64,000 nucleotides of DNA from Gammaproteobacteria bacterium (GCA_027018875.1 JALUYA010000032.1:26567-90566), one strand, 5' to 3'. Counted from the first letter of the stretch, positions 28,398 to 63,550 are shown. Notes: generated from the sequence alone by a model not told the origin. Made by a program: numbers and translations.

Positions 28398-28712
28398 GTT
28401 GAATCTACTCCCCACTATCAAGATAAGATCGCGGCCAAGATGAGTCAAAAATATGACAAGACGAAATTATTGCGCCTCGTTCCTCCCGCACGAATTTCTT
28501 GTATCTCTCCGGCCTGCCCATCCTACTAGTACATTCGTTCAAAACCCTAGCCATTCATGTTCAACTTAGCCATGTTTTCCCCGTCGGATGCATTTACCGG
28601 TAGTATAACGGGGTTTGGATGGTCGGTCCCTCACGGTGGGTAATCCCCATTCCCGGGTTTGAGTGCCCCGTGAATACACCGGCCTATCCGCTCCACCCGT
28701 GGGAATGCAGTT

Positions 28713-29909
28713 ATGGATGAACTACTATTGACTCGCCAACCGGTTTTCGATACCCGCCTGCAGGTGGTCGGCTACCTGCTGGAACACCATTTCATTGCCG
28801 GGATGGACAACGCCACAACCGCCGGAAATCACCAATCGCAAATCACCGCACTCATTGAAACCGGGCTGGAATATTTGACGGCGGAGCATCGTATTTTTAT
28901 CGCCACCACCCACGCTGATATCGAGTGGCTCATGGAACTTTGCGCCCCACACCCCCAGCTGGGAATCGCCTTGGAATATTCCCCCGACCTGGACCCCGAG
29001 GCCTCCTACCTGGCGCGGCTGTCGGCACAGCGGGGAATCAACCTGGCGTTGTTGAAATTCCCCTACACTCCCAGCCTGTTCCCCTTGTTTTTGCAAGCCG
29101 AAATCGTCATCATTCCGGGTGGGACGACCTCCCCATCCGAACTGGGCGCCTGGCTCCAGCGACTCCAGGGATACCCGGCCCGCGGGTGTGCTTCCGGGCT
29201 CGACACCCAAGCGGATTTCGACGCGGCCAAACAGGCCGGGTTCGAGTTATTCCAGGGTCAATTCCTGTCTCACTCCGATAGCTGGAGCAACCGCAAAATC
29301 CCTCCCAGCCTGATGGCTCCCCTGGCCTTGCTGGCACAACTCCAGAACCCGGAAATCGCCGTCAAGGATATCGAGGACCTGGTAAAGGCCGATGCGGCGC
29401 TCAGCTACCGGGTATTGCGCTGGGTCAATTCCGCCTATTACGGGATTGAGATCGAAATCGAGAGCATCAGCCATGCCATCGTCTATCTCGGCGTCGACCA
29501 ACTCAGGAATTGGCTCGGCCTCATGGCCCTGTCCGGCCTGAAACCCATCAGTGCGGAGCTTTTGGACATGGCCGCCATTCGCGCCAGGATGGCGGAGGTT
29601 CTCGCGCCCCTGCTCGGCCTGAACCCCGGCAAGGCCTTTACCCTGGGCCTGTTTTCCCTGCTCGATGCCATCATCCAGGCACCGATACGGGAAATATTGG
29701 TCTCGCTGCCCTTGAGCAAGGACCTGAAGGCCGCCCTGGAGGAGGGAACCGGGCCTTATGCCCGGCTGCTGAGCCTGATCAAAAATTATGAGCAGGGCCA
29801 CTGGAGTCAAGTCGTGAATACCCCCGTTCCTGCGGCTCAATTGGGAGAAGCCTATCTCCAGGCCATCGAATGGACCAATGCACATCGCCTCTCGGATACC
29901 CCCCGCTAG
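28713..29909 (+). CDS. degenerate-EAL plus HDOD domain protein (likely c-di-GMP-related signalling/effector protein)
   Basis: N-terminal EAL-like fold with QPVFD...YLLEHHF replacing EALxR and no DDFGTG; C-terminal HDOD-like region (AVKDIEDLVKADAALSYRVLRWVNSAYYG...HAIVYLGVDQLRNWL). Confidence 0.7.
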   Translation: MDELLLTRQPVFDTRLQVVGYLLEHHFIAGMDNATTAGNHQSQITALIETGLEYLTAEHRIFIATTHADIEWLMELCAPHPQLGIALEYSPDLDPEASYLARLSAQRGINLALLKFPYTPSLFPLFLQAEIVIIPGGTTSPSELGAWLQRLQGYPARGCASGLDTQADFDAAKQAGFELFQGQFLSHSDSWSNRKIPPSLMAPLALLAQLQNPEIAVKDIEDLVKADAALSYRVLRWVNSAYYGIEIEIESISHAIVYLGVDQLRNWLGLMALSGLKPISAELLDMAAIRARMAEVLAPLLGLNPGKAFTLGLFSLLDAIIQAPIREILVSLPLSKDLKAALEEGTGPYARLLSLIKNYEQGHWSQVVNTPVPAAQLGEAYLQAIEWTNAHRLSDTPR

Positions 29910-30007
29910 CCAACCTCTCCTTGCCTGCCCCGCCCGGGCGACGCGGATCCCGGAAAGAGAACCCCAAATAGCTCACCCCCGGCACCACGCGCACCAGCTC
30001 GATTCGA

Positions 30008-30625
30008 TCATCCCCGGACCGGGTCCCCGGTATCATCGGGCGTACCGGGTGGGTCGCCTTCGGCCTCCAGGCGTTCATGACGTTCACGTAGAATGCGCCG
30101 ATGATAGCGAAAGGCCACCCGGGCGACACCCTGGCGCGCCGCCGGCGACATTTGCTCCAGGCGGGTCTCGATGTGCCACTTGGAACCATCCCCGGAAGGA
30201 ATCACTTGTTGCACGGTCGCCGGCAAGATCAGCGGCATCGGCAAACGCGAATTGAGATACACCTCGACCAGCAGGGTCGCGTCCCGCGGGGGTGCGGTAT
30301 CGCTCTCCCAGGCCAAGGTGTTCTCACCCAGAATCACCGGAACCACGGGAGGCGGCTCGAACTGCCGCCGCAGCCACATGCCGAACAAGGCGATCAGCAA
30401 GCCCAGCCGGGTCTCGGTCCGGGCCTGTGGATCCTCCCCGACCGGCGTATCCCGATAACTGCTTTCCAGCTCTTCCAGCCAGACCTGATTAGCCAAAAGC
30501 GCCTCATTGTCGTGCATGATGGCGTTCAGCACCCGGGTCTCGGGTATTACCGCTTCCCGCCAGCTCAGCCCGAGGCGTTGATGCAACTTGACCCCGTCAT
30601 TGCCGCTATGCGGATCCGTCTCCAT
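30008..30625 (-). CDS. hypothetical protein, last gene of the fliC-flaG-fliD-fliS string
   Basis: 205 aa from ATG 30623-30625 with GAGGTGG RBS 9 nt upstream; overlaps fliS 3' end by 20 nt; no family recognised (not FliT-sized, no PilZ motifs). Confidence 0.4.
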   Translation of the reverse strand: METDPHSGNDGVKLHQRLGLSWREAVIPETRVLNAIMHDNEALLANQVWLEELESSYRDTPVGEDPQARTETRLGLLIALFGMWLRRQFEPPPVVPVILGENTLAWESDTAPPRDATLLVEVYLNSRLPMPLILPATVQQVIPSGDGSKWHIETRLEQMSPAARQGVARVAFRYHRRILRERHERLEAEGDPPGTPDDTGDPVRG

Positions 30626-31007
30626 TTCCGGCCACCTCGTTCCACGCAAGACGCAAATTTTCCACCACCGGGCGACATTCGGCAAGCAGTTCGGGATCAT
30701 TGAAAATGTTGGCCCGGGCCAGCCGGTCCAGGAGAAAGCGGTATAGGCCCTCCAGATTCATGGCCAGCTCACCGCCCGCTTCGAAATCCAGGGCGGCCAG
30801 AAGATGTTCCACCACGCGAAAGGCGCGATCCAGGGCCTGTGCCCGGGCGGAAACATCACCGGATTCGAATCCCTGGTAGGCGCGGCGCAGGTATTCGCTC
30901 AACCCGTCGAAGCCCAGGGCCACCATGCGCGCGGGATCCATACCGACCGCACGGGTGCTGCGATAGGCCGCTACCCCTATTCTGGTTACGGCTCCGTCTG
31001 CATTCAT
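30606..31007 (-). CDS. fliS: flagellin-specific export chaperone FliS
   Basis: 133 aa; ...YRSTRAVGMDPARMVALGFDGL...ALDRAFRVVEHLLAALDFEAGGELAMNLEGLYRFLLDRLARANIFNDPELL... FliS family pattern. Confidence 0.85.
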   Translation of the reverse strand: MNADGAVTRIGVAAYRSTRAVGMDPARMVALGFDGLSEYLRRAYQGFESGDVSARAQALDRAFRVVEHLLAALDFEAGGELAMNLEGLYRFLLDRLARANIFNDPELLAECRPVVENLRLAWNEVAGNGDGSA

Positions 31008-35005: not shown

Positions 35006-38000
35006 TTAAGCGTTATATCGGCGTACCTGCCGGGATTCAATGGCGGGCGCCTCGCCCGCATCCCCTTTAACGGCACCCCGCGCGGGGACTTTAGAGCCCG
35101 GCAGCCAGGCGCCCAGCACCTCCTCCAGGTGATCCTCCAACAACCAGCGTTCGCGCACCAGCCGCTGCAGTTCACGCCCCTGCGCCGCGAGCGCCTCGGG
35201 CTCGGCCAGGCGTTCGCGGATGGCGCGGATCCAGTCGCGGCGGCGCGGACCCACCCGCGTGAGCGGCAACGCCCCCCGGTAGGCGACGACATCGCTGGCG
35301 ATCACCGGGTAGCCGCAGGCGCCATACTCGAGCAGGCGCAGGTTACTCTTGGCGGCATTGAATGGAGAGGCGGTGAGCGGCGCCAACGCGAGATCGAGCG
35401 CCAGCGCCCGCAGCGCCCGGGGGTAGGCGCCCAGCGGCACCGCCGGGTGTAACTCCTTCACGTAGCGCCGCAGCGGTTCGGGGCACATGCCGAAGAACAC
35501 CCAGTCCACCTCCCGCGCCAGGGCCTCGACCACGCCGGCGATCAGGGCCAGGTCGCCCGCATGGCCGATACCACCGGCCCAGCCGACACGGGGCCGGCGG
35601 GAGCCTATCGGCGCGGGAGGATCGAACGCCCCCCAAACGCTACGCGGCAGATAATTCGGCCTCACGACCACCTCCGGAGCCAAGTGCCCATAGGCCTCGG
35701 CCAGTGGCTCGGTGGCCACCACCAGGCGGTCACAGAGGCCCACGGCATCGCGCAAGCGGCGCATGATGTCGGCGGGAATCGTGCTTCGGTGGGCACTGGT
35801 AAGCGGCAGGTTGGAAATCAGATCATCCAGCTCGTAGCTGAGAAACGCCCGGCCGGTGCGACGATAGCGGCGGATCGCCTCGATCTGGTGATCCTCGAGC
35901 TGGCGCTGCAGCAGCACCGCCTGGGGTTGGACGCGCTCGATCTCGACCGCGTTGAGGGGAAGTTCGAAGCTCGCCTGCGCCTCGGCCAGCCCGGCGCCCA
36001 CCAGGGCCCGCGCCGGGGCCAGCACCCGGTACTCGCCGCAGCCCTGCCGATCCGCCGGGTGGCACAGGATCCGTGGCGGCGCCACCCGCGCCAGGTACCG
36101 CGGCGCCGGCAGTGCCGCCTCGGGCGTAAACCCCTTCCCGCGCAAACTAAGGTTTGGGTTATAGACCGGATCGGCCGCGATCCGCGGCAACCAGCGCGAC
36201 AGCATCACCCTGGATTCCTCACCAAACTGCGCCGACTGCCGGGTAGCGGAAACGCCTTCAACCTGGGATCGCTGGCTTTTCGAGCCTTCGTGAAGCAGGG
36301 TTGCATAGGGGGTATAGACCACGCGGCGGCCGCGGCGACGCAACTTGAGGCACAGGTCCACATCATTGAAAGCCACGGCCAGGTCGTCCTCATCCATGCC
36401 GCCCACAGCCAGGTAGTCCGCCCGGGAAAGCAGCAGGCAGGCCGCCGTGACCGCCGAGTAATCCTGGGCCAGCCGCGCCCGCCCGAAGTAACCGGGCGCA
36501 TCCGCCGCCAATCCGAGGAACGGATGATCCGCCGGCGCGCCGTCGCCGATGCCGAGCACCACCCCCGCGTGCTGCACCCGACCGCCGGGAAACAACAGCC
36601 GGGCGCCGACCGCGCCGACCCCGGGCTGCAGCACCCGGGCCAGCATCTCCCGCAGCCAGTCAGAATGCAGGGCCGCCGTGTCGTTGTTGAGCAACAGCAG
36701 GTATTCGCCCCGGGCGGCGGCGGCCCCGCGGTTGATCATGGCACTGAAGTTGAAGGGCCCGGGACAGGGCAAAACCCGCAGCTTCCCGTCGAGTTCCCGC
36801 GCCGCCGCGATCAGCCCGTCGAGGTACTGCCGGGCCTCGGGCTCTCGGCTGTCGTTGTCGAGCACGATCACCTCGAGGTCGGGATAGTCGGTGGCGCCGA
36901 GCAGGATTTCCAGGCAGCGCTGCAACTGCCCCACCTCGTCCCGCGTGGGAATCAGGATGGAAACCGGCGGTGTCCGCGGCAACGGGTAACACACCCGGAA
37001 GCTCGCCGGAAAGGGCCCGTCCCGGACGGTCGCGCCGGCGGCGGTGCGCGCCAGGTGCGCGCCGAGGGCGGCCCGCGCCGCCGCGATCATCTCCTCGATG
37101 CTCACTGCGCAGCGACGGGACTGGGCGTCGCGGTGATACAGAATATCCGGCAGGTGCACCAGGGTATCGCCCCCGGTATGCTCCCAGACTCGTAGCGCAA
37201 GATCGTAATCCTCGGCGCCGGGGTAGCGGTCATCCCAGCCCAGGTCCCCCAGAACGTCCTGGCGCACCAGCATCACCCCCCCCAGGTAGGGCATGCTGCG
37301 CAGCAGTTCGGGGTTGAAATCCGGCTTGTAGTGCGGGTTGACCCGCTGCCCCGAAGCCTCCAGCGTGTCCTCGTCGCTATAGAGCAGGGTCGCCCGCGGG
37401 TGTTCGGCGAGAAACCGGCGGCATAACCCGACCGCCTCCGGGTGCAGCCGGTCGCCGGCCTCGAGCAGCCCCACCCAGTGCTGCGGGTTGCGTGGCAATC
37501 CCGCGGAAAACGAATGCAGGGAAGCTTTTCCTGCGATCCGCCATTGGATCCGGGGGTCGGCCGCAACCTCATCCGCCGCCGGGCCGGCGGCCAGCACCGT
37601 CAGCCGCCAGTGACCATCGCCCTGGGCCAGCAAGCTGGCGACCGAGGCCCGGGCCGCTTTCTCACGCCCCGCAAGAGCGATACAGACCAGGTGAACCGCT
37701 CCCGCCCCGGCGGGAGCGGGGCTCGCCCGGACCGCCCGCTGCCACACGGCTTGATGCGCCCGCCACCGCGCATAGGCATCGGGCTCCGCCGCCTGCGCCC
37801 GGATGAAGGCCTCCCCCGCCTCGCGACACCAGTCCAACCCGGCGGAACGGTGACCGGGATGGTGCGCCTCTTCCACCAGGCAGCGCCAGGTTTCATACGC
37901 CGGATCGAGTGCCCCCGGCGCGGGCGCCGCCGCCCCGTCGCCGTGATGCCTCCAGGCCCCGTGCACCGCGGCCGCCGCCCGTTCGCGATCCAGTCCGGGA

Positions 38001-39583
38001 AGATCCAGCGCCGCCAGGGTGGCCCCCGGATCGCGCACCAAATCCTCGTACACCACGACCACCCGCGCCAGATCCGCCGTGTCCCGTTCGATCGCCAGCA
38101 TGTGCTCCAGCCACAGTGCCAGCGCCTGCTCGCGCTCCATGCCGTCGCGGCGGGCGAGCGAGGCGGCCACCGCCTCCGGGTGACGCACCACCACCACCGC
38201 CATTACCCGCGCGGCCGCCGCCTCGAGCAACGGCTTCCAGAACGGCAACAGACGCGCCATCCGCGGCTCCTTGAGGCCCCATAAACCGGTTCGTGCAACG
38301 GCTCGCGTGAGCGCCATGCGCGCCGCCGGGCAATAGGGCGCAAGGCCCGCGAGGGCCGCAGGATCGAGGTCCAGGCCCGGCGCGTCCCAGCGGCCGCCGC
38401 GCGCCGCAAGCAGCGCCTCGTCGATCTCCAGCAGCGACAGCGCCTCGTGATAGCCGCCCGGATTATCGGCCTGGGGCGGCAATTGTTCCGTCCCGAAATC
38501 GATGCCACCGGCCTCCAGCGCCGCGGCCATCGCCGAGGTGCCGCCGCGGTGCATACCCAGCACCACGACGGCGTGCCCGCGCCGGGCGCCGGGATGCCAG
38601 GCCTCCCGGGCGCGGGCGAAACTCTCCAGGTGCCCCGCCGTGCTTGCGGCCCAGGTATAACCCGACACCTGCTCCCGCCCGGCCCGGGCCAGCTCCTCGC
38701 GCCGCCCGCGCGACTCGCTCAACTGCCGCAACGCGGTGCCAATCCCCACCGGGTCGCGCGGATCGAAGCGCAGGTAAGCCTCGCCGTAGAGTTCGCGTAG
38801 CGCCGCTATATCGGCCGCCGCGACCGGACAGCCACAGGCCATCGCCTCGGCCACCGGCAAGGCGAAGGTCTCGTGCAGCGACGGGCACACCAGCGCCACC
38901 GCGGAGCGGTAGTAGGCGGCAAGATCCGCCGCGTCGAGCGCGCGGGCGATCAGGCGCACCCCCGCGGGGAGCGCGGGCCCGGCATAACCCGGCAGCACCA
39001 GGGTCAGCGGCAGCCGCCCACTAGCGGGCAGCCGGCACCAGGCATCGACCAGGCGGGCAATGTTCTTCTTCGGCTGCCACTGGGCCACGCAGAGCAGCCC
39101 GACCGCTTCCTCCCGCACCCGGCCGGCGGGCGTATAGACCCCTTGATCGATCCCGTGCGGGACGACATCGATTCGCGCCGCGGGAAAGCCGAGGTGGTGC
39201 ATCGCCTCGGCGGCCGCCGCCCGCGAGGGCGTGATCAGCCGATCGATGCGCCAGCGCCGCTGTACCCACGCAGCCAACTGGTGCAGTTGGCCCGCGGTAC
39301 CCCTCGCGGCCGCCGCCGGCGTGGCGTAGTAATCCTCGGGCGGAAGCGCCAACGGCCCGACCCCATGCAGGGTCACCACGGTGGGGCGGGCCGCCTCGAG
39401 CGGCGGTAACGCCCGGGGAAACAACCCACCGGCACAGTAGGGATCCCAGTACAGCTCGCCATCCCCGCCGGGGTGGACCTCGATCCCGCCTTCGCCGAGC
39501 CCGGCAACGATCCGGTCCCGGTAGACCGCGAGACTCAGGGGCACCGGCCCGGGCGCGGGCGCAAGCGTGATCCGTGCGGTCAT
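35006..39583 (-). CDS. 1525-aa multidomain glycosyltransferase: GT4 (GT-B) - sulfotransferase-like P-loop domain - GT2 - GT2 - C-terminal GT-B domain; predicted flagellin glycan assembly enzyme
   Basis: Single uninterrupted ORF. aa 1-330 GT4-like (ETFALPVAEAMACGCPVAAAD). aa ~335-545 sulfotransferase-like (5'PSB-like VLGMHRGGTS, 3'PB-like VVRHPEAVAASL). aa ~600-830 GT2 (LYSDED). aa ~860-1090 canonical GT2 (VSILIPTRD, DNDS, NNDT, GGMDE...AFNDVDLCLKLRRRG). C-terminus GT-B (EYGACGYPVIASD). Sits between flgL and fliC. Confidence 0.8.
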   Translation of the reverse strand: MTARITLAPAPGPVPLSLAVYRDRIVAGLGEGGIEVHPGGDGELYWDPYCAGGLFPRALPPLEAARPTVVTLHGVGPLALPPEDYYATPAAAARGTAGQLHQLAAWVQRRWRIDRLITPSRAAAAEAMHHLGFPAARIDVVPHGIDQGVYTPAGRVREEAVGLLCVAQWQPKKNIARLVDAWCRLPASGRLPLTLVLPGYAGPALPAGVRLIARALDAADLAAYYRSAVALVCPSLHETFALPVAEAMACGCPVAAADIAALRELYGEAYLRFDPRDPVGIGTALRQLSESRGRREELARAGREQVSGYTWAASTAGHLESFARAREAWHPGARRGHAVVVLGMHRGGTSAMAAALEAGGIDFGTEQLPPQADNPGGYHEALSLLEIDEALLAARGGRWDAPGLDLDPAALAGLAPYCPAARMALTRAVARTGLWGLKEPRMARLLPFWKPLLEAAAARVMAVVVVRHPEAVAASLARRDGMEREQALALWLEHMLAIERDTADLARVVVVYEDLVRDPGATLAALDLPGLDRERAAAAVHGAWRHHGDGAAAPAPGALDPAYETWRCLVEEAHHPGHRSAGLDWCREAGEAFIRAQAAEPDAYARWRAHQAVWQRAVRASPAPAGAGAVHLVCIALAGREKAARASVASLLAQGDGHWRLTVLAAGPAADEVAADPRIQWRIAGKASLHSFSAGLPRNPQHWVGLLEAGDRLHPEAVGLCRRFLAEHPRATLLYSDEDTLEASGQRVNPHYKPDFNPELLRSMPYLGGVMLVRQDVLGDLGWDDRYPGAEDYDLALRVWEHTGGDTLVHLPDILYHRDAQSRRCAVSIEEMIAAARAALGAHLARTAAGATVRDGPFPASFRVCYPLPRTPPVSILIPTRDEVGQLQRCLEILLGATDYPDLEVIVLDNDSREPEARQYLDGLIAAARELDGKLRVLPCPGPFNFSAMINRGAAAARGEYLLLLNNDTAALHSDWLREMLARVLQPGVGAVGARLLFPGGRVQHAGVVLGIGDGAPADHPFLGLAADAPGYFGRARLAQDYSAVTAACLLLSRADYLAVGGMDEDDLAVAFNDVDLCLKLRRRGRRVVYTPYATLLHEGSKSQRSQVEGVSATRQSAQFGEESRVMLSRWLPRIAADPVYNPNLSLRGKGFTPEAALPAPRYLARVAPPRILCHPADRQGCGEYRVLAPARALVGAGLAEAQASFELPLNAVEIERVQPQAVLLQRQLEDHQIEAIRRYRRTGRAFLSYELDDLISNLPLTSAHRSTIPADIMRRLRDAVGLCDRLVVATEPLAEAYGHLAPEVVVRPNYLPRSVWGAFDPPAPIGSRRPRVGWAGGIGHAGDLALIAGVVEALAREVDWVFFGMCPEPLRRYVKELHPAVPLGAYPRALRALALDLALAPLTASPFNAAKSNLRLLEYGACGYPVIASDVVAYRGALPLTRVGPRRRDWIRAIRERLAEPEALAAQGRELQRLVRERWLLEDHLEEVLGAWLPGSKVPARGAVKGDAGEAPAIESRQVRRYNA
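35015..35045 (-). promoter_or_regulatory. possible sigma28-type -10 element (GCCGATAT) for fliC embedded in the 3' end of the glycosyltransferase ORF
   Basis: Minus strand reads ...TTGAATCC-N11-GCCGATAT-AACGCTTAAGTAAGGAGCGAAATC-ATG; -10 matches GCCGATAA 7/8, -35 weak; only 15 bp separate the GT stop and fliC ATG. Confidence 0.3.
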
Positions 39584-40896
39584 GGTTGTTCATCCTCCCG
39601 CCGCACCTGCCACAGCGTGGTGCCGCGATAGCGCAACAGGGCCGTCCCCGGCGGGGCACCGGCGCGGGCCAGGGTAGTGCTCAAGGGCTCGTGCCATGCG
39701 GTAATAGCACCGGCGTATTCTCCCGTGGGTTGGGTCTCGAAGCCGGCCACCAGCAGACACCGGCCGGTACACCGCCACAGGTGTTCGACGAAGGCGGTGT
39801 AGGCCGCCCGCTCGTGCTGGTGAATCAGAACATCGAGGCAAACCACCAGGTCCGCCGCCGGTGCGGTCTTTGCCCAGGCCAGGAAATCGCCGGCGACGAA
39901 GCCAAGATCGGGCCACTTCCGGCGTAATCGCTCAATTTGCTCCTCGGCGACATCGATCCCGGTATAGCGGGCTCCCCGCGGCAACGCGACGGATTCCCAC
40001 AAAACCCGATCACCACAGCCGACGTCGAGAATTGAATCGGGCGCGACCTCGTGCATAACGCGTGCAAGACACGCCTTTTTCTGCCGCCCCACGGAACCGC
40101 GCGAGCCAAGGCCCGAGCCCAGCTCGGGGTTTATTCGGTAGCGATCATTCCAGAAGCGGCGGTTATCGAACACCGCCCCCTCCCAAGGCGCAGCCACGCC
40201 GGCGGGAAGCCTCCGCCCGGGGGCGGCGAGCACCCGTACCACCGCGCGGGAGCGCTCGAGGGTGCCCCGACCGTCGCTATCGAGAAGCAATTCGCTCCAA
40301 CCACCGGGCAATGGGGTGGAATCCACGTCGCAAGTCAGAATGGGCTTGAACCGCCGCCAGGCGGGCAGTCGTCGAAGCAGATCGAGCCAGTCGGCCAGGC
40401 GCGTGCACCGCACCCAATCCACCGCATCCGGCACCGCGGCATCCGCACGATCGAGTTCGATATAGCGCACCGCGGATTGAGCCTCGACGCGGCGTAGAAT
40501 TTCGCGCCATGGCGTCACCCCACGCGCCAGCCCGGCAATGGCGACGGGCCCGTCCGCGTGGGTGGCGAGACGAAAGGTAAGCGGATCCCCATACAGATCG
40601 ATAACCCCGCGCCCGCGCAACCGCGAGGCAAGCTGTGCCTCGATCCGCGCCCGCGGGGACGGCGGACACAGAAACCGCATTGCCAGTTGCGCATCGAGCA
40701 GCGGGATACGGGCATGATCTTCTCCCCAGCTCCACTCGATCTCCGCACCATAGGCATGCAGGGTGGCAAACTCGGCGGCGGCCGCGGCCAACCCGGTGGC
40801 CTCCTCGGTGAAAGCCGCCTCGCGCCGGGCCCAGGCAAGCACGGTCTGTACATAGGCCAGCGCCCCCTGCGCGGCACCGGGACGGGGAGCCGTCAT
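39580..40896 (-). CDS. two-domain protein with C-terminal class I SAM-dependent methyltransferase (predicted flagellin-glycan methyltransferase)
   Basis: 438 aa; C-terminal ILDVGCGDRVLWESV...ARYTGIDVAEEQ...DLVVCLDVLIH SAM-MTase motifs; ~250 aa N-terminal domain unassigned; ATGA overlaps with flgL (40893-40896) and with the GT gene (39580-39583). Confidence 0.7.
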   Translation of the reverse strand: MTAPRPGAAQGALAYVQTVLAWARREAAFTEEATGLAAAAAEFATLHAYGAEIEWSWGEDHARIPLLDAQLAMRFLCPPSPRARIEAQLASRLRGRGVIDLYGDPLTFRLATHADGPVAIAGLARGVTPWREILRRVEAQSAVRYIELDRADAAVPDAVDWVRCTRLADWLDLLRRLPAWRRFKPILTCDVDSTPLPGGWSELLLDSDGRGTLERSRAVVRVLAAPGRRLPAGVAAPWEGAVFDNRRFWNDRYRINPELGSGLGSRGSVGRQKKACLARVMHEVAPDSILDVGCGDRVLWESVALPRGARYTGIDVAEEQIERLRRKWPDLGFVAGDFLAWAKTAPAADLVVCLDVLIHQHERAAYTAFVEHLWRCTGRCLLVAGFETQPTGEYAGAITAWHEPLSTTLARAGAPPGTALLRYRGTTLWQVRREDEQP

Positions 40897-53110: not shown

Positions 53111-53508
53111 CCTCCCGCCGTCTCCGCCCGGAACACCGCGAAGGATTGCTGGCGCTGGAGCAGATGCTGGAGGCGGAACGCGTGGCCCTGGTCAACGCCG
53201 ATTATGACCGGCTGCAAAGCCTTTCCGAGGAGAAGATCCGCCTGCTGGGATGGCTGGAAAAGATTCTCGGCGAGGAATTTTCCGGCGACGATGTACTCGC
53301 CGGCGACACCGACTGGAAACAATTTCTCGGCGCGCTGGCCGAAGCCCGGCAGAAGAACCGGGAAAACGGCGCCCTTATCAGCCGCATGCAGGACTTTGTC
53401 CGCGAAGCCCTGGCGGTATTGCGGGGAACGGACGGCGACAGCGCCTACGATGCGCACGGAAGCGCCGACCAGGCCTGCATAAAAAGCCACACCCTGGGCC
53501 GGGCCTGA
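53107..53508 (+). CDS. flgN: flagellar export chaperone FlgN
   Basis: 133 aa; LLALEQMLEAERVALVNADYDRLQSLSEEKIRLLGWL... FlgN family pattern; overlaps flgM stop and csrA start. Confidence 0.7.
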   Translation: MTSRRLRPEHREGLLALEQMLEAERVALVNADYDRLQSLSEEKIRLLGWLEKILGEEFSGDDVLAGDTDWKQFLGALAEARQKNRENGALISRMQDFVREALAVLRGTDGDSAYDAHGSADQACIKSHTLGRA

Positions 53509-53738
53509 TGTTTGTACTCAGCCGCAGGATCGGCGAAGCCATTCGCATCGGCGACATCCGGGTGGTCGTTACCCGCATCTCGGGAAAACAGGTGCGGCTG
53601 GGGTTTAAAACCCCCACCGGGCTGCGGGCGTACCGGGCGGAGCTGTATGCCGCCATCGAGGCCGATAACCGCGCCGCGCAACGCGTCACCCCCCAACTAC
53701 TGGATTACTGGACGAAACATGACAACGCAACGGATTGA
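53508..53738 (+). CDS. csrA: carbon storage regulator CsrA (flagellar-type, FliW-partnered)
   Basis: 76 aa MFVLSRRIGEAIRIGDIRVVVTRISGKQVRLGFKTPTGLRAYRAELYAAIE... vs canonical MLVLTRRVGETLMIGD...; ATG overlaps flgN stop (TGATG); extended C-terminus. Confidence 0.85.
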   Translation: MFVLSRRIGEAIRIGDIRVVVTRISGKQVRLGFKTPTGLRAYRAELYAAIEADNRAAQRVTPQLLDYWTKHDNATD

Positions 53739-54189
53739 GACGGCCTTCGGCCCCATCGAAGTACGGCCCGGGCAGCTTTGGAGCATCGCCGGCAGCCTGG
53801 CCGGGTTTCCCGAACTGCGTCATTTCGTGTTGCTCGATGTCGCCTGCCACCGGCCGTTGGTCTGGCTCCAGGCCATTGAAGACCCGTCGGTCTGCTTCGC
53901 CCTTGCCGCCCCGGCGACCTTTTCCCTGGCCTACCCGCCGGTACCCACCGAAGCCTTGTTCGGAACGCCCGCCGCCGAGACCCTGCTGATGCTGATGGTT
54001 ATCCTGGAGCGGCAGGGCCAAGGCCGGATCGTGCCCCAGCCACATCGCCTGGCCCCCTTGTGTTTCGACCTGCGGCGCAAGCGCCTGACCCAGTGGATTC
54101 TCGCCAACCCCCGGGCAGTTACCACCATCACTTTCCCCGTGACGCAAGTCCCCGCGCCGCCGCTGGAACCCATCGCCGTCAACGCCTAG
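53720..54189 (+). CDS. fliW: flagellar assembly factor FliW
   Basis: 156 aa MTTQRIETAFGPIEVRPGQLWSIAGSLAGFPELRHFVLLDVA...PLVWLQAIEDPSVCFALAAPATF matches FliW (DUF180); overlaps csrA 3' end by 19 nt. Confidence 0.8.
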
Positions 54190-57063: not shown

Positions 57064-57272
57064 CGGCTGGGGGACCCTTATAATGGAGCCGGGTTGCCAT
57101 GGAGATTCAAACTCTGTGTTTTTTGCTCCCGGTGAAACCGCGGCGACCCGGCCCCCGACAAGCCTGAACGAACCCATGACTCCCGGGCGCGCGAGTCATG
57201 GCTGAATCCCCGTCGCCGGGCCCCCTCACCCATCAGAAAACGCTCGCCCGGGGCCAGCCGCCCCCCGCGGCC

Positions 57273-58070
57273 ATGACGGAGAACGAATTCCAGCGGTTCC
57301 AGGCGCTGTTCGCGCAAACCCTGGGGCTGAGCTTCACCTCCGAAAAACGGGACCTGTTGACGCTGCGCCTCGCACCCCGGCTGGCCGCGCTGGGGCTGAG
57401 GGATTACACCGCCTACCATGCCCTTATCGCCCGCCCCGAGGCCCGGGAAGAACGCCTGCGCGCCTTCGATCTGGTGACCACCCACGAAACCTGGTTCTTC
57501 CGCGAGATCCGCCATTTCGATTACCTGCGTGAGCAGGCCTCGGAATGGCCGCTGGACCGCAAGCTGCGCGTCTGGGACGCCGCCTGCTCGAGCGGCGAGG
57601 AGGCCTATTCCATCGCCATGACCCTGGCCGAGGTCATGGGAACCCACCGCAAACGCTGGGAACTGCTCGCGAGCGACATCAGCCACCCCTGCCTCCAGGC
57701 GGCCCGCCACGGCAAGTACCCGCTCGGGCGCGGAAAAGATATCCCTCAGCGCCACCTGGAACGTTTTTGCCTCAAGGGAGTCCACTCCCAGGAGGGCCAA
57801 TTCTGCATCCGCCGCGAACTGCGCGATACCGTTCACTTCAAGTTGATCAACCTGGTCGAGCCGCTACCCTTGCTCTCCCCATTCGACATGATCTTCCTGC
57901 GCAACACGCTCATCTACATGAACCCGGCCGTGCGAACCTCGATCGTTACCGCATTGACCTCGCGGCTTGCTCCCGACGGCATTCTGTTCATCAGCCACAC
58001 CGAAAGCCTTCAAGGCCTGGGCCTGAAATTTCGCCTGCTCCAACCGGGAATCTACTGCCGTGATTACTGA
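57273..58070 (+). CDS. cheR: chemotaxis protein methyltransferase CheR
   Basis: FQRFQALFAQTLGLSFTSEKRDLLTLRLAPRLAALGL...ETWFFRE...RVWDAACSSGEEAYSIAM...; alternative upstream start 57198 adds a Pro-rich 25 aa. Confidence 0.8.
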   Translation: MTENEFQRFQALFAQTLGLSFTSEKRDLLTLRLAPRLAALGLRDYTAYHALIARPEAREERLRAFDLVTTHETWFFREIRHFDYLREQASEWPLDRKLRVWDAACSSGEEAYSIAMTLAEVMGTHRKRWELLASDISHPCLQAARHGKYPLGRGKDIPQRHLERFCLKGVHSQEGQFCIRRELRDTVHFKLINLVEPLPLLSPFDMIFLRNTLIYMNPAVRTSIVTALTSRLAPDGILFISHTESLQGLGLKFRLLQPGIYCRDY

Positions 58071-58197
58071 TACAAACATCGCCCGGGCCCCCCGGATCCC
58101 GCCGGGACGATGAGCTGGAGATCGGCCCGGCGCACCCCGGGACCCTATAGCCGAACCGCAATCGGCAACCACCCGGAAACCCCTTTATAATGAACTG

Positions 58198-58249
58198 GAA
58201 GCCATTGCCTCCAAGACCGGGTGCCACCGCCGGGCCCGGCAATGGCTTC
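58198..58249 (+). repeat. perfect 12-bp inverted repeat (GAAGCCATTGCC ... GGCAATGGCTTC) with 28-nt GC-rich spacer, in cheR-fliM intergenic region
   Basis: Read directly: 58198-58209 is the exact reverse complement of 58238-58249; lies ~45 nt upstream of the fliM-like start, just after a TATAAT hexamer (58186-58191). Confidence 0.5.
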
Positions 58250-58293
58250 ACCACCACCGGGACGGGGAGACTCTTGAGGCGGATGATCTGGAA

Positions 58294-59475
58294 ATGACCA
58301 CGGAGAAAAAGCCACGAACCCGAAAGAAACCGCGAACGGCCAAGCCCGCGGCGCGCAAGAAGACCGCACCCGGCAAACCAGCGGATAGGGTAAAGGATGC
58401 GCCCGCAGCGACGCTCTCCCAGGACGAAACCGATCAAACCGTCCAGAATGCCCAGCCGGGCACCGCGCAAATCCAAGAAGAACGCCTGCTCTCCCAGGAC
58501 GAAATCGATACCCTGCTCTCCGCCATCGATGGCGGAGATATCGGCAAGGAAACGGATCAGATCGAACCGCAGGAGGGGGATATTCAGCCCTATGATCTTA
58601 CCCGGCAGCACCAGAAAAACATGCACTTTCCCGGCCTGGAACTGCTCAACGAACGCTTCGCCCGACGCTTCCGGATCGCTTTGCTGAGCTTGCTGCGCTG
58701 CGCAATCGAAATCAAGCCCACCCCGCTGCGCCCACAAACCTTCACGCAGTTCATGAACCAGCTTCCCATGCCGACGTGCCTGAACATCGTCAATGTGCGC
58801 CCCCTTTACGGCTCGGCCATGTTCGTATTCGACACCCAGCTCGTCTATACCCTGGTCGATATTTACTTCGGGGGCTCCGGGCGCACCCCCATCAAGGCCG
58901 AAGGGCGCGACTTCACCCCCACGGAAATCCGGGTCGTGCGGGCCATCCTGCGACAGGCCTTCGCCGATCTGTCCGCCGTCTGGGACCCGATCTCCCCGCT
59001 TCGGTTCCAGTATGACCGGTTCGAGCAGAACCCCCGCTTTGCCACCATCCTGGGCCCGGATGAACTGGTCTTGGAGTCCGGTTTCACCCTGAATGTGGGC
59101 GGCAGCAGCGGGGTTTTTCGCGTTCTTTTCCCCCTGACCATGCTCGAACCCGTGCAGCAACTGCTCGCCACCACCTACCAGGAAACCATACCGGAACAGG
59201 CCAATGAGACCTCCATTCACCTCTCTTCCCTGGAGGGGATCGACATCGAGGCCGTATGCGAATTCGGCACGCTATCCCTGAGCGTGGGCCAACTGCTGTC
59301 CCTGAAGCCCGGAGCGGTCATTCCCCTCGAGCCCACGAGTCACCCGCAATTGAGGATCTCCGGCCTGGTCATTGCCCAGGGACAGGCCGGCATGAAGGAC
59401 GGCAACCTGGGCTTCCGGGTAGAATCGATGGAATCCATCGAACCTGAACCGCCGGCCCCGAGTCAACACCCATGA
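58294..59475 (+). CDS. fliM: FliM-like flagellar motor switch protein with 65-aa basic N-terminal extension
   Basis: 393 aa; [13 protein letters not shown] CheY-P-binding motif (plus an upstream partial copy [10 protein letters not shown]), middle domain [21 protein letters not shown] (cf. E. coli LEIINERFARHFRMGLFNLLR), C-terminal FliN/SpoA-like domain; stop overlaps cheY start (ATGA). Confidence 0.75.
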
Positions 59476-59867
59476 AACGCCAAAACCTGTCCATCCTCGT
59501 AGTCGATGACTTCGCCACCATGCGCCGGATCGTTCGCAGCCTGCTCGCCGAGCTGGGTTACACGAAAGTCATGGAGGCCGAAGACGGCCTGCAAGCGCTC
59601 TCGGTACTCCGCACCCAGCCCATCGATTTCGTGATTTCCGACTGGAACATGCCCCGGATGCAGGGTATCGATATGCTTCGGGCTATTCGTGCGGACCAGG
59701 CGCTGGCCCATATTCCGGTGTTGATGGTCACGGCCGAGGCCAAGCGGGAACAGATCGTCGCCGCCGTCCAGGCCGGGGTCAACGGCTATGTGGTCAAGCC
59801 TTTCACCGCCGTGACGTTAAAGGAGAAGATGAGCCGGATCTTCGAACGGTTGGAGGGAAGCGCCTGA
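59472..59867 (+). CDS. cheY: chemotaxis response regulator CheY
   Basis: 131 aa [25 protein letters not shown]...[24 protein letters not shown]...[32 protein letters not shown]. Confidence 0.9.
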
Positions 59868-59913: not shown

Positions 59914-61803
59914 ATGGGCGAACTGGAACAAGAGCTGTTACAGGACTTTCTGGTCGAGGGCCGGGAACTTCTCGAAAATCTCGATGAAAACCTGGTCGAT
60001 CTGGAACAACGGCCGAACGACGAGGAACTGCTGAACGCGGTCTTCCGGGGGTTCCATACCCTGAAGGGGGGTGCCGGATTTCTGGGTATCGCCCCGATGG
60101 TCAATCTCTGTCATCGGGCCGAGGCACTGCTGGATCGCCTGCGCCAGGGCGAGCTACGCATCGACGCCCCCCTCATGGACACCATCCTGACCGCACTCGA
60201 CGCGACCAAGGCGATGTTCGCCACCCTGGAACAAGGGAAAAAGCCGGAAGATCCCGATCCCTCGCTGTACGCGCAATTGGATCATTACGTATCCGCCCCG
60301 GGAGCGGAACCCGAAACCGGGACGGAGGCGGTTCCGCAAGCCCCCCCGCAGACCGGTGGAACCGGGGGGGTGAGTTTTGAAACCCTGCTGGCCGAGGCGG
60401 CCAATGCGGATCCGCCACCGGGCACGGATGAAGCGATAAGCGATGAGGAATTTGAAACCTTACTGGACGGGATGTACGGTCCCGGCGCGGCCCCCGGAGT
60501 TGCTCAAACCCGGGAGCCATCCCCTGTGCAGCAAGCTTCACACTCCAGGGAAAACACAGAAAATACTCCGCCCGTTCCATCGTCACCGCACCCGGAAAAA
60601 ATTTCCGTACCGAAACCTCCTACGGAAAACACGATCCGGGTGGACGCCAAACGCCTCGACGAGTGTCTGAACCTGGTGGGTGAGCTGGTGCTCACCCGCA
60701 ATCGCCTGTTTACCCTGGCCGAGAAATCCATGGGTGCAAGCTATGCCGATGTGCTCGCCAACATGGACCAGATCACTTCCGGTCTCCAGAATGCCATCCT
60801 GAAGCTGAGGATGCAGCCGATTCAACGCGTTTTTTCCCGTTTTCACCGGGTGGTGCGCGACCTGGCGCGCCACCTCGGCAAGGAGGTTCGCCTGGAGTTG
60901 ATCGGCGAGGAAACCGAGGTGGACCGCAGGGTCATCGAAGAACTGGCCGACCCGCTGACCCATCTACTGCGCAACGGCCTGGATCATGGGATCGAACCTC
61001 CCGATGAGCGCGAGGCCCTGAACAAGCCCCGCGAGGGTCGCCTGACGCTTCGCGCCTCCCAGCAGGGCGACCACATCCTGATCGAGATGATCGATGACGG
61101 GCGCGGCATCGACCCCGATCGATTGCGCCGGGCGGCGGTGGAAAAGGGCCTTATCGGCGTCGACAACATCGGCGATATCAGCGACGAGGAGGCCTACGAT
61201 CTGATGTTTCTGCCGGGTTTTTCCACCCGGGCCCAGGTTTCCGACATTTCCGGGCGTGGGGTCGGCATGGACGTCGTCCGTAACGGCATCACCAACCTGA
61301 ACGGTAATATCCAGGTTCGCTCGGAGCCCGGCAAGGGCAGCTGTTTTCGCATCACCCTGCCGCTCACCCTGACGATCCTGCCCACCCTGATCGTCGGCGT
61401 GAATGGCCAACGCTTCGCCTTCCCCCTGTCGCGCGTACGCGAAGTAACCCGCCTATCGGAACACCATCAACACCGGGTCGGACACCGCAGCACCCTGGTC
61501 TTTCGCGGCCAGACCGTGGTCCTGTTCGATCTGCGCCGGGAACTGGGTGAGCGGCGAAACTCCGAAAATCCCCCCCCGGAGGCAAACCCCCAGGTCCTGA
61601 TCATCGAGGCGGCCAACCGCACGGCCGCCATATTCGTCGATACGATCCTCGGCCAACAGGATGTGGTCGTCAAGCCCCTGGCCGTGGAGCTGACCTCCAC
61701 CACGGGAATTTCCGGGTCATCTATCACCGGCGATGGACGCATTGTCCTGATCCTGGATCTGGACGAACTCGTCCGCTCCCTGCTACTGGAGCGGGCCGCT
61801 TGA
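59914..61803 (+). CDS. cheA: chemotaxis histidine kinase CheA
   Basis: 629 aa; HPt P1 domain FRGFHTLKGGAGFLG, dimerisation/HATPase (HLLRNGLDHGIE, DDGRGID, GRGVGMDVV), C-terminal CheW-like domain. Confidence 0.9.
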   Translation: MGELEQELLQDFLVEGRELLENLDENLVDLEQRPNDEELLNAVFRGFHTLKGGAGFLGIAPMVNLCHRAEALLDRLRQGELRIDAPLMDTILTALDATKAMFATLEQGKKPEDPDPSLYAQLDHYVSAPGAEPETGTEAVPQAPPQTGGTGGVSFETLLAEAANADPPPGTDEAISDEEFETLLDGMYGPGAAPGVAQTREPSPVQQASHSRENTENTPPVPSSPHPEKISVPKPPTENTIRVDAKRLDECLNLVGELVLTRNRLFTLAEKSMGASYADVLANMDQITSGLQNAILKLRMQPIQRVFSRFHRVVRDLARHLGKEVRLELIGEETEVDRRVIEELADPLTHLLRNGLDHGIEPPDEREALNKPREGRLTLRASQQGDHILIEMIDDGRGIDPDRLRRAAVEKGLIGVDNIGDISDEEAYDLMFLPGFSTRAQVSDISGRGVGMDVVRNGITNLNGNIQVRSEPGKGSCFRITLPLTLTILPTLIVGVNGQRFAFPLSRVREVTRLSEHHQHRVGHRSTLVFRGQTVVLFDLRRELGERRNSENPPPEANPQVLIIEAANRTAAIFVDTILGQQDVVVKPLAVELTSTTGISGSSITGDGRIVLILDLDELVRSLLLERAA

Positions 61804-62582
61804 GACGCTTTGCGGTCGTCAACCAGAAGGGCGGGGTCGGCAAGACCACGACCGCTCTCAGCCTGGGCGCCCTGCTCGCCCGCGATCACGCTCCGGTACT
61901 CTTGGTGGACCTGGATCCACACGGATCGCTTACGACCTATTTCGGCCTGGATCCCGATCGGGTTCAAGCCGGAAGCCAGAGCTTGTTCGACGTGCCTCCG
62001 GGCACCGATTTTCCGCCCTTGGAATCCCTCGCGGTGCCTACCGGTACGCCGAATCTCATCCTCCTGCCCGCCGCCAGCACCCTGGCGACGATCGAGCGAC
62101 GCCTGGCCTCGGCCGTCGGCACAGGCCTGGTTCTGCGCACGGCAATCGAAAAATCCGGGTCGGATTTCAGCCACATCCTGATCGACACCCCCCCCACCCT
62201 GGGGGTACTCATGATCAACGCGCTGGCCGCCTGTGAACAGGTCATCATTCCCGCGCAAACCGACTATCTCGCCCTGCGGGGACTCGACCTGGTTTCCCGC
62301 ACCCTCGAGCGAGTACGCAAAACCCGTCACTGGCCCTTGCCCGAGTTGATCGTTCCCACTTTCTACGATCGCCGCACCAAGGCCTCCGAGGCCGGCCTCG
62401 CCGAACTCAAGCGCCGCTACCCGGAACGGCTTTGGCCCGATGTGATTCCCATCGACAGCGGCATCCGCAATGCCAGTGCCGCGGGCATTCCCTATCCCGC
62501 GTACAATCCCCGGGGCAAGGCCACCCGGGCCTATGAACGGCTTCTCTCCCATTTGTTGCCCCGGGAGGGAAATACCGAGTAA
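61800..62582 (+). CDS. ParA/MinD-family ATPase, chemotaxis-cluster type (ParC-like)
   Basis: 260 aa from TTG overlapping cheA stop; deviant Walker A VVNQKGGVGKTTTAL; position between cheA and cheW genes as for ParC. Confidence 0.7.
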   Translation: MRRFAVVNQKGGVGKTTTALSLGALLARDHAPVLLVDLDPHGSLTTYFGLDPDRVQAGSQSLFDVPPGTDFPPLESLAVPTGTPNLILLPAASTLATIERRLASAVGTGLVLRTAIEKSGSDFSHILIDTPPTLGVLMINALAACEQVIIPAQTDYLALRGLDLVSRTLERVRKTRHWPLPELIVPTFYDRRTKASEAGLAELKRRYPERLWPDVIPIDSGIRNASAAGIPYPAYNPRGKATRAYERLLSHLLPREGNTE

Positions 62583-62696: not shown

Positions 62697-63041
62697 ATGT
62701 CACACAGAATTCCCGCGGCCTCGATTTTGATCCTGTCCCTGTTGCTGCCCTCCAGTGCCTGGGCCATCGGCAGTCGTGTGCAAAATACCCTGCTGCAGGC
62801 GGCCGTAATCGGCGGCAATGCCAAGGCTTGCGGCATTGCCACCAAGGCGCTGATTCAAACCTTTGACCGGACATTGTTCCACCTGGGCGTCGGCGTGGTT
62901 GAACAGCAACAACTCAAGGGGGCCTTCCGCTATGCGTTCAACCTCGGCATTCAGCGCCAACTGGCCGCCGGTAATAAAAATTGCGGTAGCGTCAAAGAAC
63001 GGTTGGCCGACTCGATCGCCCAATTAAAAGCCCTGCACTAA
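62697..63041 (+). CDS. hypothetical small secreted protein
   Basis: 114 aa; signal peptide MSHRIPAASILILSLLLPSSAWA; AGGAG RBS 7 nt upstream; preceded by an unusually AT-rich promoter-like island 62610-62680; two Cys (possible disulfide). Confidence 0.45.
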   Translation: MSHRIPAASILILSLLLPSSAWAIGSRVQNTLLQAAVIGGNAKACGIATKALIQTFDRTLFHLGVGVVEQQQLKGAFRYAFNLGIQRQLAAGNKNCGSVKERLADSIAQLKALH

Positions 63042-63076: not shown

Positions 63077-63550
63077 ATGAACACAGCAACCAATATCATC
63101 CAGAACTATCTCTCGGATCTGCTGCAGGAGCCGCCACAGGCAGCGCCCGATCCGGATCGCTACCGCATGGTTACGCTGGCGGGCCTGCGCCTGCTGCTGC
63201 CACCCCCCTACGCGGATCGGGTCTCGACCTCCCCCGCGGCGATACCACCCGGGCGCCGCGTCGATATCCGCCCCGTGCTATTCCCCGAAGGACATCCCGC
63301 CAGGCTCCACCAGGAGCAGGCACGCTGCTGGCTGGAACTCCCCGAACCCGGGCTGGTTCTATGGTTTGGAGCGGACAAGGGCCTGCGGCACATCGATCCC
63401 GAATCGCTCGCCGTCCCGGGGACACCGACCCAACGCCCCTGGCTCCTGGCCACGGTTGCCGACCTCAAGGCCGCCATAATCGATCCCAGCCGGTTGATTG
63501 AATGCCTGCAACCGGATCCGATAGTAAATTCAGAGGATTCACCGATATGA
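63077..63550 (+). CDS. divergent CheW-like domain protein (possible ParP-like coupling protein)
   Basis: 157 aa; weak CheW-like pattern (MVTLAGLRLLLPPPYADRV ... GLVLWFGADKGLRHIDPESLAVPG); stop overlaps cheW start (ATGA). Confidence 0.45.
   Translation: MNTATNIIQNYLSDLLQEPPQAAPDPDRYRMVTLAGLRLLLPPPYADRVSTSPAAIPPGRRVDIRPVLFPEGHPARLHQEQARCWLELPEPGLVLWFGADKGLRHIDPESLAVPGTPTQRPWLLATVADLKAAIIDPSRLIECLQPDPIVNSEDSPI

Follow-up and report, generated by a model that had tools for sequence, protein, structure and literature searches.

A probable relocation of fliM into the chemotaxis operon, with a disordered basic N-terminal extension, in an uncultured gammaproteobacterial lineage

FliM is one of the proteins of the flagellar motor switch, or C-ring. 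Its LSQDEID motif is universally conserved and is needed for the binding of phosphorylated CheY (CheY-P), and its GGXG motif has a role in the binding of FliG. In Bacillus subtilis, the fla/che operon runs fliL-fliM-fliY-cheY, and some FliY and FliN proteins, such as the FliYs of Bacillus and Thermotoga, carry an EIDAL motif at the N-terminus. The CheY-P phosphatases CheC, CheX, and FliY have the active-site motif D/S-X3-E-X2-N-X22-P on a CheC-like fold. Another gene that matters here, flhF, normally lies between flhA and flhG. The product of flhG binds the FliM N-terminus (PMC12826062), and a short, disordered N-terminal extension of positive charge is common to the activators of ParA/MinD ATPases, which are otherwise diverse proteins (PMC7993993, PMC10241942). 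The subject of this report is the fliM gene at positions 58294 to 59475 of a 64,000-nucleotide stretch of DNA from a Gammaproteobacteria bacterium (GCA_027018875.1, JALUYA010000032.1:26567-90566). The whole stretch is called the window throughout, and the gene sits there in a chemotaxis (che) operon.

This gene is very probably the organism’s single functional fliM, moved from the fliL-fliN position to the che operon and bearing a disordered basic extension. A preliminary description of the same DNA had placed a FliM-like gene between cheR and cheY, with a stop codon that overlaps the cheY start, a basic N-terminal extension on the protein, and no cheZ in the cluster. These observations were borne out. 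The open reading frame (ORF), Pfam, TIGR01397, and the neighboring genes agree on what the gene is and where it lies; the overlap is the ATGA at 59472-59475; the extension is about 63 amino acids (aa) long, with a net charge of +11 in aa 1-30; and Pfam, motif, and tblastn searches detected no cheZ in the 64-kb window. The features of the gene are listed below, the motif score coming from a position-specific scoring matrix (PSSM) built from 127 unique FliM N-termini.

58294..59475, plus strand: fliM ORF, encoding a flagellar motor switch (C-ring) protein of 393 aa from an ATG start; identified with TIGR01397 and Pfam
58294..58482, plus strand: N-terminal extension (aa 1-63), not present in canonical FliM and predicted to be disordered
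58294..58383, plus strand: basic head (aa 1-30), rich in Lys, Arg, and Pro, with a net charge of +11 and 12 Lys/Arg residues
58414..58443, plus strand: degenerate upstream motif copy (aa 41-50), a DNA repeat of the canonical motif 75 nt downstream
58489..58518, plus strand: canonical CheY-P-binding (and FlhG-binding) motif (aa 66-75), PSSM score 28.7 bits; internal, not N-terminal
58624..59166, plus strand: FliM middle domain (aa 111-291), Pfam PF02154, E 1.5e-48
58867-58881, plus strand: GGXG motif FGGSG (aa 192-196), within the FliM middle domain
59230..59430, plus strand: C-terminal FliN-like (SpoA) domain, FliMN_C (aa 313-379), Pfam PF01052, E 1.5e-12

The TIGR01397 fliM_switch equivalog model scored 249.1 bits against a cutoff of 219.6, with positions 1-316 of its 320 falling on aa 64-377. 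Since the model begins at aa 64, about 63 residues stand ahead of the canonical FliM start. In a phmmer search of the PDB, aa 64-379 corresponded to residues 4-320 of Salmonella FliM (8umd_C, E 3.5e-58). The canonical motif (aa 65-75) aligns to SILSQAEIDALLNG of Salmonella FliM and is kept in all homologs. Also, G193, G194, and G196 are invariant in the homolog alignment, and the C-terminal FliN-like region matches the FliM-FliN fusion structure 4yxb.

The predicted structure agrees with this. An AlphaFold2 model built on a 15-sequence alignment was confident for the middle and C-terminal domains, with predicted local distance difference test (pLDDT) values of 80-94 in the middle domain, and it placed a helix at aa 68-79, over the canonical motif. 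The best Foldseek matches of the model were FliM chains from cryo-electron microscopy structures of the C-ring, and the template modeling (TM) scores were 0.86-0.95 against the FliM middle domains of Vibrio, H. pylori, and T. maritima (0.95 for Vibrio 7dm9). FliM structures were matched at E values of 1e-27 to 1e-13, compared to 1e-10 to 1e-5 for CheC, CheX, and FliY, and the FliY equivalog model reached 24.9 bits against a cutoff of 218. The ratio of nonsynonymous to synonymous substitution rates (dN/dS) of the core, measured against the gene of its closest relative (P0002, below), was 0.13; judged from this ratio, the core is under strong purifying selection. By every sequence and structure comparison tried, the protein is a FliM; that it is the sole copy in this genome we infer from the relatives.

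Those relatives form a small and well-separated group. A word-indexed search returned 11 proteins (P0001-P0011, with P0001 the window protein) of 368-405 aa, 42-85% identical to the query and all metagenomic, after which the score fell from 329 to 240 bits and ordinary FliMs of 325-350 aa followed. An exhaustive search of 1.84 billion representatives gave the same picture, with a drop in score from 391 to 230 bits. In almost every one of the 150 best FliM representatives, query 62-66 was matched by residue 2-8, which means that FliM normally begins at the motif. The 11 extended FliMs are monophyletic with 100% neighbor-joining (NJ) bootstrap support and fall into subgroups A (P0001, P0002, and P0004), B (P0009-P0011), and C (P0003 and P0005-P0008), with A and B as sister groups (99%, NJ) and C as the outgroup. 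No clade member turned up in a pattern scan of 185,579 species-representative genomes. A scan of genome contigs with the clade alignment found only canonical FliMs (Halothiobacillus, Guyparkeria, and others) at 29-42% identity, all in fliLMN-type loci, and the same kind of scan with the downstream YcgR-like protein gave no match. The housekeeping protein SpeA encoded in the window is at most 71% identical to proteins from gammaproteobacterial metagenome-assembled genomes and about 55% identical to its counterparts in Inmirania, Thiohalobacter, and Sulfurifustis, which places the host in an uncultured gammaproteobacterial lineage.

The vacated site can be seen in the relatives on either side of the window organism in the tree. 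On the 230-kb contig that encodes P0005 (L042), the order is fliI, fliK, fliL (3368-3943), fliN (3985-4461), fliO, fliP, fliQ, fliR, flhB, flhA, and flhG, and there is no fliM in the 41-nt gap between fliL and fliN. In the loci of P0010 and P0011 (L052/L053 and L056), fliN likewise adjoins fliL with no fliM between them. From the branching order, in which C lies outside the pair A and B, the loss of fliM from its old site probably predates the whole clade. The non-clade controls from Halothiobacillus (L011 and L044) have the canonical fliL-fliM-fliN order. With clade and canonical FliMs as queries, tblastn gave one fliM, and no more, for each clade locus and for the 64-kb window.

The new site is also shared. 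In subgroup C (P0005), the order cheR-cheV-fliM-cheY-cheA-parC is kept, the cheV gene (CheW plus receiver domain) of this subgroup lying between cheR and fliM (L004:9136-10008; L055:9139-9996; L057:1110-1985). The che-operon position, being common to A and C, is ancestral for the clade, the che genes beside fliM having been lost later in subgroup B. There the extended fliM stands alone between fliW and a convergent ycgR-motB-motA-fliA-flhG-flhA block (L052/L053:10001-11886; L056:9687-11602), and the che operon of A and C is absent on both sides of it. The P0002 locus (L050), whose FliM is 85% identical to the one in the window, continues with ycgR-motB-motA-fliA, like the other relatives. That B keeps fliM without che genes fits an indispensable structural gene rather than an accessory sink. 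The preliminary description had left a choice between a canonical fliM in an atypical location and a che-operon paralog acting as a CheY-P sink or scaffold. The hallmarks of FliM in the protein, the adjoining fliL and fliN in the bracketing relatives, and the single fliM per locus all favor the former, and the paralog finds no support in the bracketing relatives or the copy number per locus.

The second unusual property of the gene is its extension. From the preceding in-frame stop (58111-58113) to the LSQDEID motif, there is no ATG, GTG, or TTG other than the ATG at 58294. As the sole start 5' of an essential motif, it means that the 63-residue extension must be translated. The pLDDT is below 50 across aa 1-63, and aa 1-30, at +11, make up the most basic N-terminus among 50 window genes. 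All 11 clade members are extended, by 39-70 aa of which 3-14% are hydrophobic, and the extensions are built of the same blocks, a basic head and then an acidic or Pro/Ala/Thr-rich spacer. A Lys/Arg cluster occurs within the first 12 residues in 10 of the 11, and the net charge of the first 30 residues is +7 to +11 in 8 of the 11. Alignment to the P0002 gene requires no indels in the extension, of which the first 12 aa match exactly, and DNA conservation with that locus resumes just 5' of the shared ATG. The dN/dS for this pair is 0.74 over the extension, 0.48 over aa 1-30, and 0.97 over aa 31-63; by these ratios, the head is under mild purifying selection and the spacer evolves nearly neutrally.

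Some apparent extensions in other genes need care. The P0002 gene call starts at a TTG located 15 codons 5' of the ATG shared with the window (L050:6962-7006); the window has no start codon that matches this TTG, and the 405-aa length of P0002 is probably an over-extension. A seeming N-terminal extension of Halothiobacillus FliM, from a tblastn match to query 2-378, was rejected as an artefact of read-through from the FliL C-terminus. In Halothiobacillus sp. DCM-1 (L011:9800-10153), a Lys-rich FliL C-terminus lies in frame with fliM, which is a trap for automated comparison. The FliN of the P0005 organism (L042:3985-4461) begins with a polybasic head followed by an acidic spacer of Pro and Ala (MTTRRKKTSTKKAKDEDQAPASRPDES...), much as the FliM of that organism does. 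The FliNs of L052 and L056 have no polybasic head.

Some points weigh against a relocated sole fliM with a functional basic extension. The fliL-fliN junction of the window organism itself is placed by parsimony from the bracketing relatives rather than by observation, and it is only by the same parsimony that a second fliM, or a cheZ, cheC, or cheX, is excluded from the rest of this genome. Also, the extension of P0007 is acidic, not basic, and this makes it harder to give the head one function throughout; with a dN/dS of 0.74 much of the extension may be functionally neutral.

The genes and signals around fliM in the che operon are as follows.

57198..58070, plus strand: cheR, with the Pfam domains CheR_N and CheR
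58162..58191, plus strand: candidate sigma-70-type promoter, TCGGCA-18-TATAAT, in the cheR-fliM spacer; 10 of 12 consensus positions
59472..59475, plus strand: ATGA in which the fliM stop and the cheY start overlap, read from the sequence
59472..59867, plus strand: cheY, 131 aa; NF007901 CheY equivalog, 191.9 bits against a cutoff of 189
59914..61803, plus strand: cheA, with the Pfam domains Hpt, H-kinase_dim, HATPase_c, and CheW
61800..62582, plus strand: ParA/MinD-family ATPase (ParC-like), with Pfam AAA_31, CbiA, and ParA; in the same operon

The same or nearly the same fliM/cheY overlap is found in four relatives (L004, L050, L054, and L055). As a sequence arrangement, it implies translational coupling of the two genes. 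Where subgroup C has cheV, the window (58071-58293), P0002, and P0004 have a non-coding cheR-fliM spacer of 140-270 nt. About 0.8 sigma-70-type matches as good as the candidate promoter are expected by chance in 3 kb, so the match is weak evidence; its TTATAAT (58185-58191) is kept in the otherwise diverged spacer of L050. No match to the sigma-28 promoter consensus was found in the window. The ParC-like ATPase gene is kept 3' of cheA in the relatives. An identical metagenome contig (L002) extends the locus with cheW, a sigma-54 activator, and a YcgR-like PilZ (PilZN-PilZ) protein. Two small ORFs, at 62697-63041 and 63077-63550, lie between the ParC-like ATPase gene and cheW, and both are kept in the relatives with no Pfam or NCBIfam match to either. 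The protein of 114 aa has a signal-peptide-like N-terminus, and the one of 157 aa sits where ParP would be expected.

Put together, the course of events was probably as follows. In the ancestor shared by a small clade of uncultured Gammaproteobacteria, fliM would have left its place between fliL and fliN. It would then have come to lie directly 5' of cheY in the chemotaxis operon and to be translationally coupled to it, and this coupling would tie synthesis of the switch subunit to that of its ligand CheY. Going by the conserved domains, the middle domain with its GGXG motif would bind FliG, the SpoA domain would pair with FliN in the C-ring, and the helix at aa 65-79 would capture CheY-P and so switch or modulate rotation. 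Ahead of the motif stands the disordered extension of about 60 aa, with its Lys/Arg/Pro-rich head followed by a near-neutral spacer. A degenerate seven-codon duplicate of the motif, one that has lost its hydrophobic ALL half, lies in the spacer of this species and of its closest relative.

The head probably mediates an electrostatic contact. Electrostatic capture of CheY was dropped as the leading idea, since this CheY has a net charge of +2 and is not acidic. A more specific proposal, itself unlikely, is that with this head FliM carries a partner tag for an ATPase of the ParA/MinD type, either FlhG or the ParC-like ATPase of the operon, and that the tag stimulates ATP hydrolysis or release during the delivery of FliM to the C-ring or the pole. 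With its net charge of +11 over aa 1-30 and its pLDDT below 50, the head matches the peptide type of the ParA/MinD activators, although only in composition and without any specific motif. FlhG is known to bind the FliM N-terminus (PMC12826062), a ParC-like ATPase is encoded two genes downstream of fliM, and 10 of the 11 clade members have a basic head, but P0007 does not. A polybasic head would be explained just as well by contacts with membranes or nucleic acids, or by contacts within the molecule itself.

The genes around flhG also bear on the partner tag. FlhG is encoded in every clade locus that reaches the region, and in all four of them flhA is followed directly by flhG with no flhF between (L042:7906-10804; L052:14333-17199; L054:19735-21107; L056:14008-16916). 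A tblastn search with Halothiobacillus FlhF found no FlhF in any clade locus or in the window, while the non-clade loci L043, L044, and L047 do have it. The clade may have FlhG without FlhF. The extended FliMs have a single evolutionary origin, however, so the co-occurrence of the head with flhF loss counts as one event. A further step, more speculative and a little less probable still, would be that in this FlhF-less lineage FliM gained a ParA/MinD “luggage tag”, a disordered polybasic N-terminal peptide about 40-60 residues ahead of its FlhG-binding EIDAL motif, and that FliM itself would activate or release FlhG or the ParC-like ATPase. If that were true, the control of flagellar number or position, or the coupling of motor and array, would have been rewired, and co-translation with CheY would be part of the rewiring.

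The preliminary description had also counted two copies of the CheY-P-binding peptide in the protein. Both strings are present, as a repeat in the DNA, but the count is overstated, as the first is degenerate, scoring -3.3 bits to the 28.7 of the canonical motif. Exact copies of a 16-nt sequence (CTCTCCCAGGACGAAA) are found at 58414 and 58489, and the match extends over seven codons with 20 of 21 nt the same. To judge from this match, the repeat is a genuine short duplication or conversion tract and not a product of chance. Duplication of a tandem 75-nt unit was ruled out, since only 12 of 54 positions outside the 21-nt core match, no better than shuffles. The upstream copy is found in P0001 and P0002 only, where it scores -3.3 and -3.4 bits, respectively, compared to +20 to +40 for genuine motifs and a mean of -26.7 for shuffled sequences (p about 0.0002). 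In the window it retains LSQDE.D, and the hydrophobic positions are gone, Ile having become Thr and Leu-Leu having become Thr-Val. AlphaFold gives no helix there, with a pLDDT of about 32. The upstream copy is thus most likely a decaying relic, one predicted to bind CheY-P weakly or not at all.

A functional second site for CheY-P or FlhG, giving two docking sites per FliM and an altered sensitivity of the switch, is distinctly improbable. In its favor, the copy is kept in two species whose proteins are 85% identical, it scores far above chance, and the copy in P0002, LSQGEIDQTV, retains the Ile. Tandem motifs also do evolve, as three independent metagenomic FliMs with two full motifs (P0145, P0180, and P0235) demonstrate. 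In these the second motif scores +10.6 to +35 bits, however, and here the copy has lost its hydrophobic positions and its predicted helix, it lies in a spacer with a dN/dS of 0.97, and the other nine clade members do not have it. The three metagenomic FliMs are unrelated to the clade and carry their intact tandem motifs 30-50 residues apart (e.g., MGDVLSQDEVDSLLNG...ILSQDEVNSLLQG). By PSSM score both of their copies are genuine, with +10.6 to +35 bits for the weaker one, and no description of FliMs with two intact motifs was found in the literature searched.

Much less probable again is a che-operon FliM paralog that serves as a CheY-P sink or scaffold to offset a missing CheZ, with a separate canonical fliM building the motor. 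The gene does lie within the che operon beside cheY, a sequence that resembles a second motif is present, and cheZ is missing from the window: the gap between cheY and cheA is 46 nt, which leaves no room for cheZ there; six-frame translation gave no match to the CheZ catalytic motif, and tblastn gave no CheZ match, anywhere in the 64-kb window; and none of the window genes scanned belongs to the CheZ, CheC, or CheX Pfam families. But the bracketing relatives have one fliM per locus and none between fliL and fliN, and subgroup B retains the gene with no che genes adjacent. The determinants for binding FliG and FliN are all conserved, the core dN/dS is 0.13, and the protein scores above the FliM equivalog cutoff.

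The last alternative, that the extension is an annotation artefact and translation begins downstream, as the preliminary description had allowed, is hardly credible: the Shine-Dalgarno sequence 5' of ATG 58294 is weak, with a GAGG at -17 that is not kept in L050, and the GC content at third codon positions is 0.67 in the extension against 0.78 in the core, but there is no in-frame ATG, GTG, or TTG from codon 2 to the LSQDEID motif, frame and length are kept between P0001 and P0002 with identical first 12 residues, and the same block architecture recurs in 11 of 11 clade members.

The rest of the window is largely flagellar. Its order begins with fliD, flagellin, a 1,525-aa multi-glycosyltransferase, a methyltransferase, and flgL through flgB on the minus strand. 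These are followed by flgA, flgM, flgN, csrA, and fliW, and then by cheB (minus strand), a methyl-accepting chemotaxis protein gene, cheR, fliM, cheY, cheA, the ParC-like ATPase gene, and the genes of the two small proteins. In the flagellin-flgL interval (35006-40896, minus strand), the 1,525-aa protein has GT4, GT2, and sulfotransferase-like domains, and the methyltransferase is 438 aa long; these genes are probably a flagellin glycosylation or modification island. The GC content rises to 0.71 over the same interval. A csrA-fliW pair lies 3' of flgM-flgN in the window (53508-54189) and in every clade locus that covers the region. Genes related to cyclic di-GMP adjoin the flagellar cluster at 25710-30700, encoding a PAS-GGDEF-EAL protein (912 aa), an HDOD protein, and an atypical PilZ protein (tPilZ).

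Taken as the motor’s own switch protein in an unusual place, and not as a decoy FliM, the product of this gene corrects a tempting over-interpretation. The locus would be a clean natural case of a single essential flagellar gene excised from fliLMN, rewired into a che operon, and coupled to the gene for its ligand, CheY. The internal position of the CheY-P/FlhG docking motif, behind about 60 disordered residues, suggests that a free N-terminus is not needed for docking. A testable lead on the interplay of FlhG or ParC with FliM comes from the conserved polybasic head and the lack of flhF beside flhG.

Nothing relevant to a FliM N-terminal extension, tandem CheY-binding motifs, or fliM in a che operon turned up in the literature searched, and neither a move of fliM alone into a gammaproteobacterial che operon nor a FliM with an internal motif behind a polybasic disordered head was found there. 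Canonical gammaproteobacterial FliMs, such as those of Salmonella (8UMD, 8WIW) and Halothiobacillus (L011), share the domain order of the window protein, with the CheY-binding motif, a linker, the middle domain with GGXG, and the SpoA/FliN-like C-terminal domain, and are 34-40% identical to it over aa 64-379. In these proteins the motif stands at the very start of the chain, and they are encoded between fliL and fliN, whereas the motif of the window protein follows about 63 disordered residues and its gene stands between cheR and cheY. To our knowledge, no FliM has been described as a ParA/MinD partner. The known partners (ParB, MinE, PomX, McdB, and TlpT) have the same kind of disordered Lys/Arg-rich N-terminus, each on an unrelated cargo-binding protein (PMC7993993, PMC10241942). 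Their likeness to the window FliM is compositional only.

Other systems resemble the locus in the number of docking motifs or in the place of the gene. The FliY and FliN proteins with an EIDAL motif likewise give more than one CheY-P/FlhG docking peptide per set of C-ring subunits, but there the extra motif is intact and on a different protein, whereas in the window the extra copy is degenerate and on FliM itself. The metagenomic FliMs P0145, P0180, and P0235 have likewise undergone a tandem duplication of the motif in the FliM N-terminus; unlike the window protein, they have two genuine copies (+10.6 to +40 bits) and no basic head, and they fall outside the clade. In the fla/che operon of Bacillus subtilis, a switch-protein gene likewise stands beside cheY in one transcription unit. 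There, however, fliM stays beside fliL in one giant flagellar operon and its product has no extension, whereas in the window lineage fliM alone has probably moved to a separate che operon.

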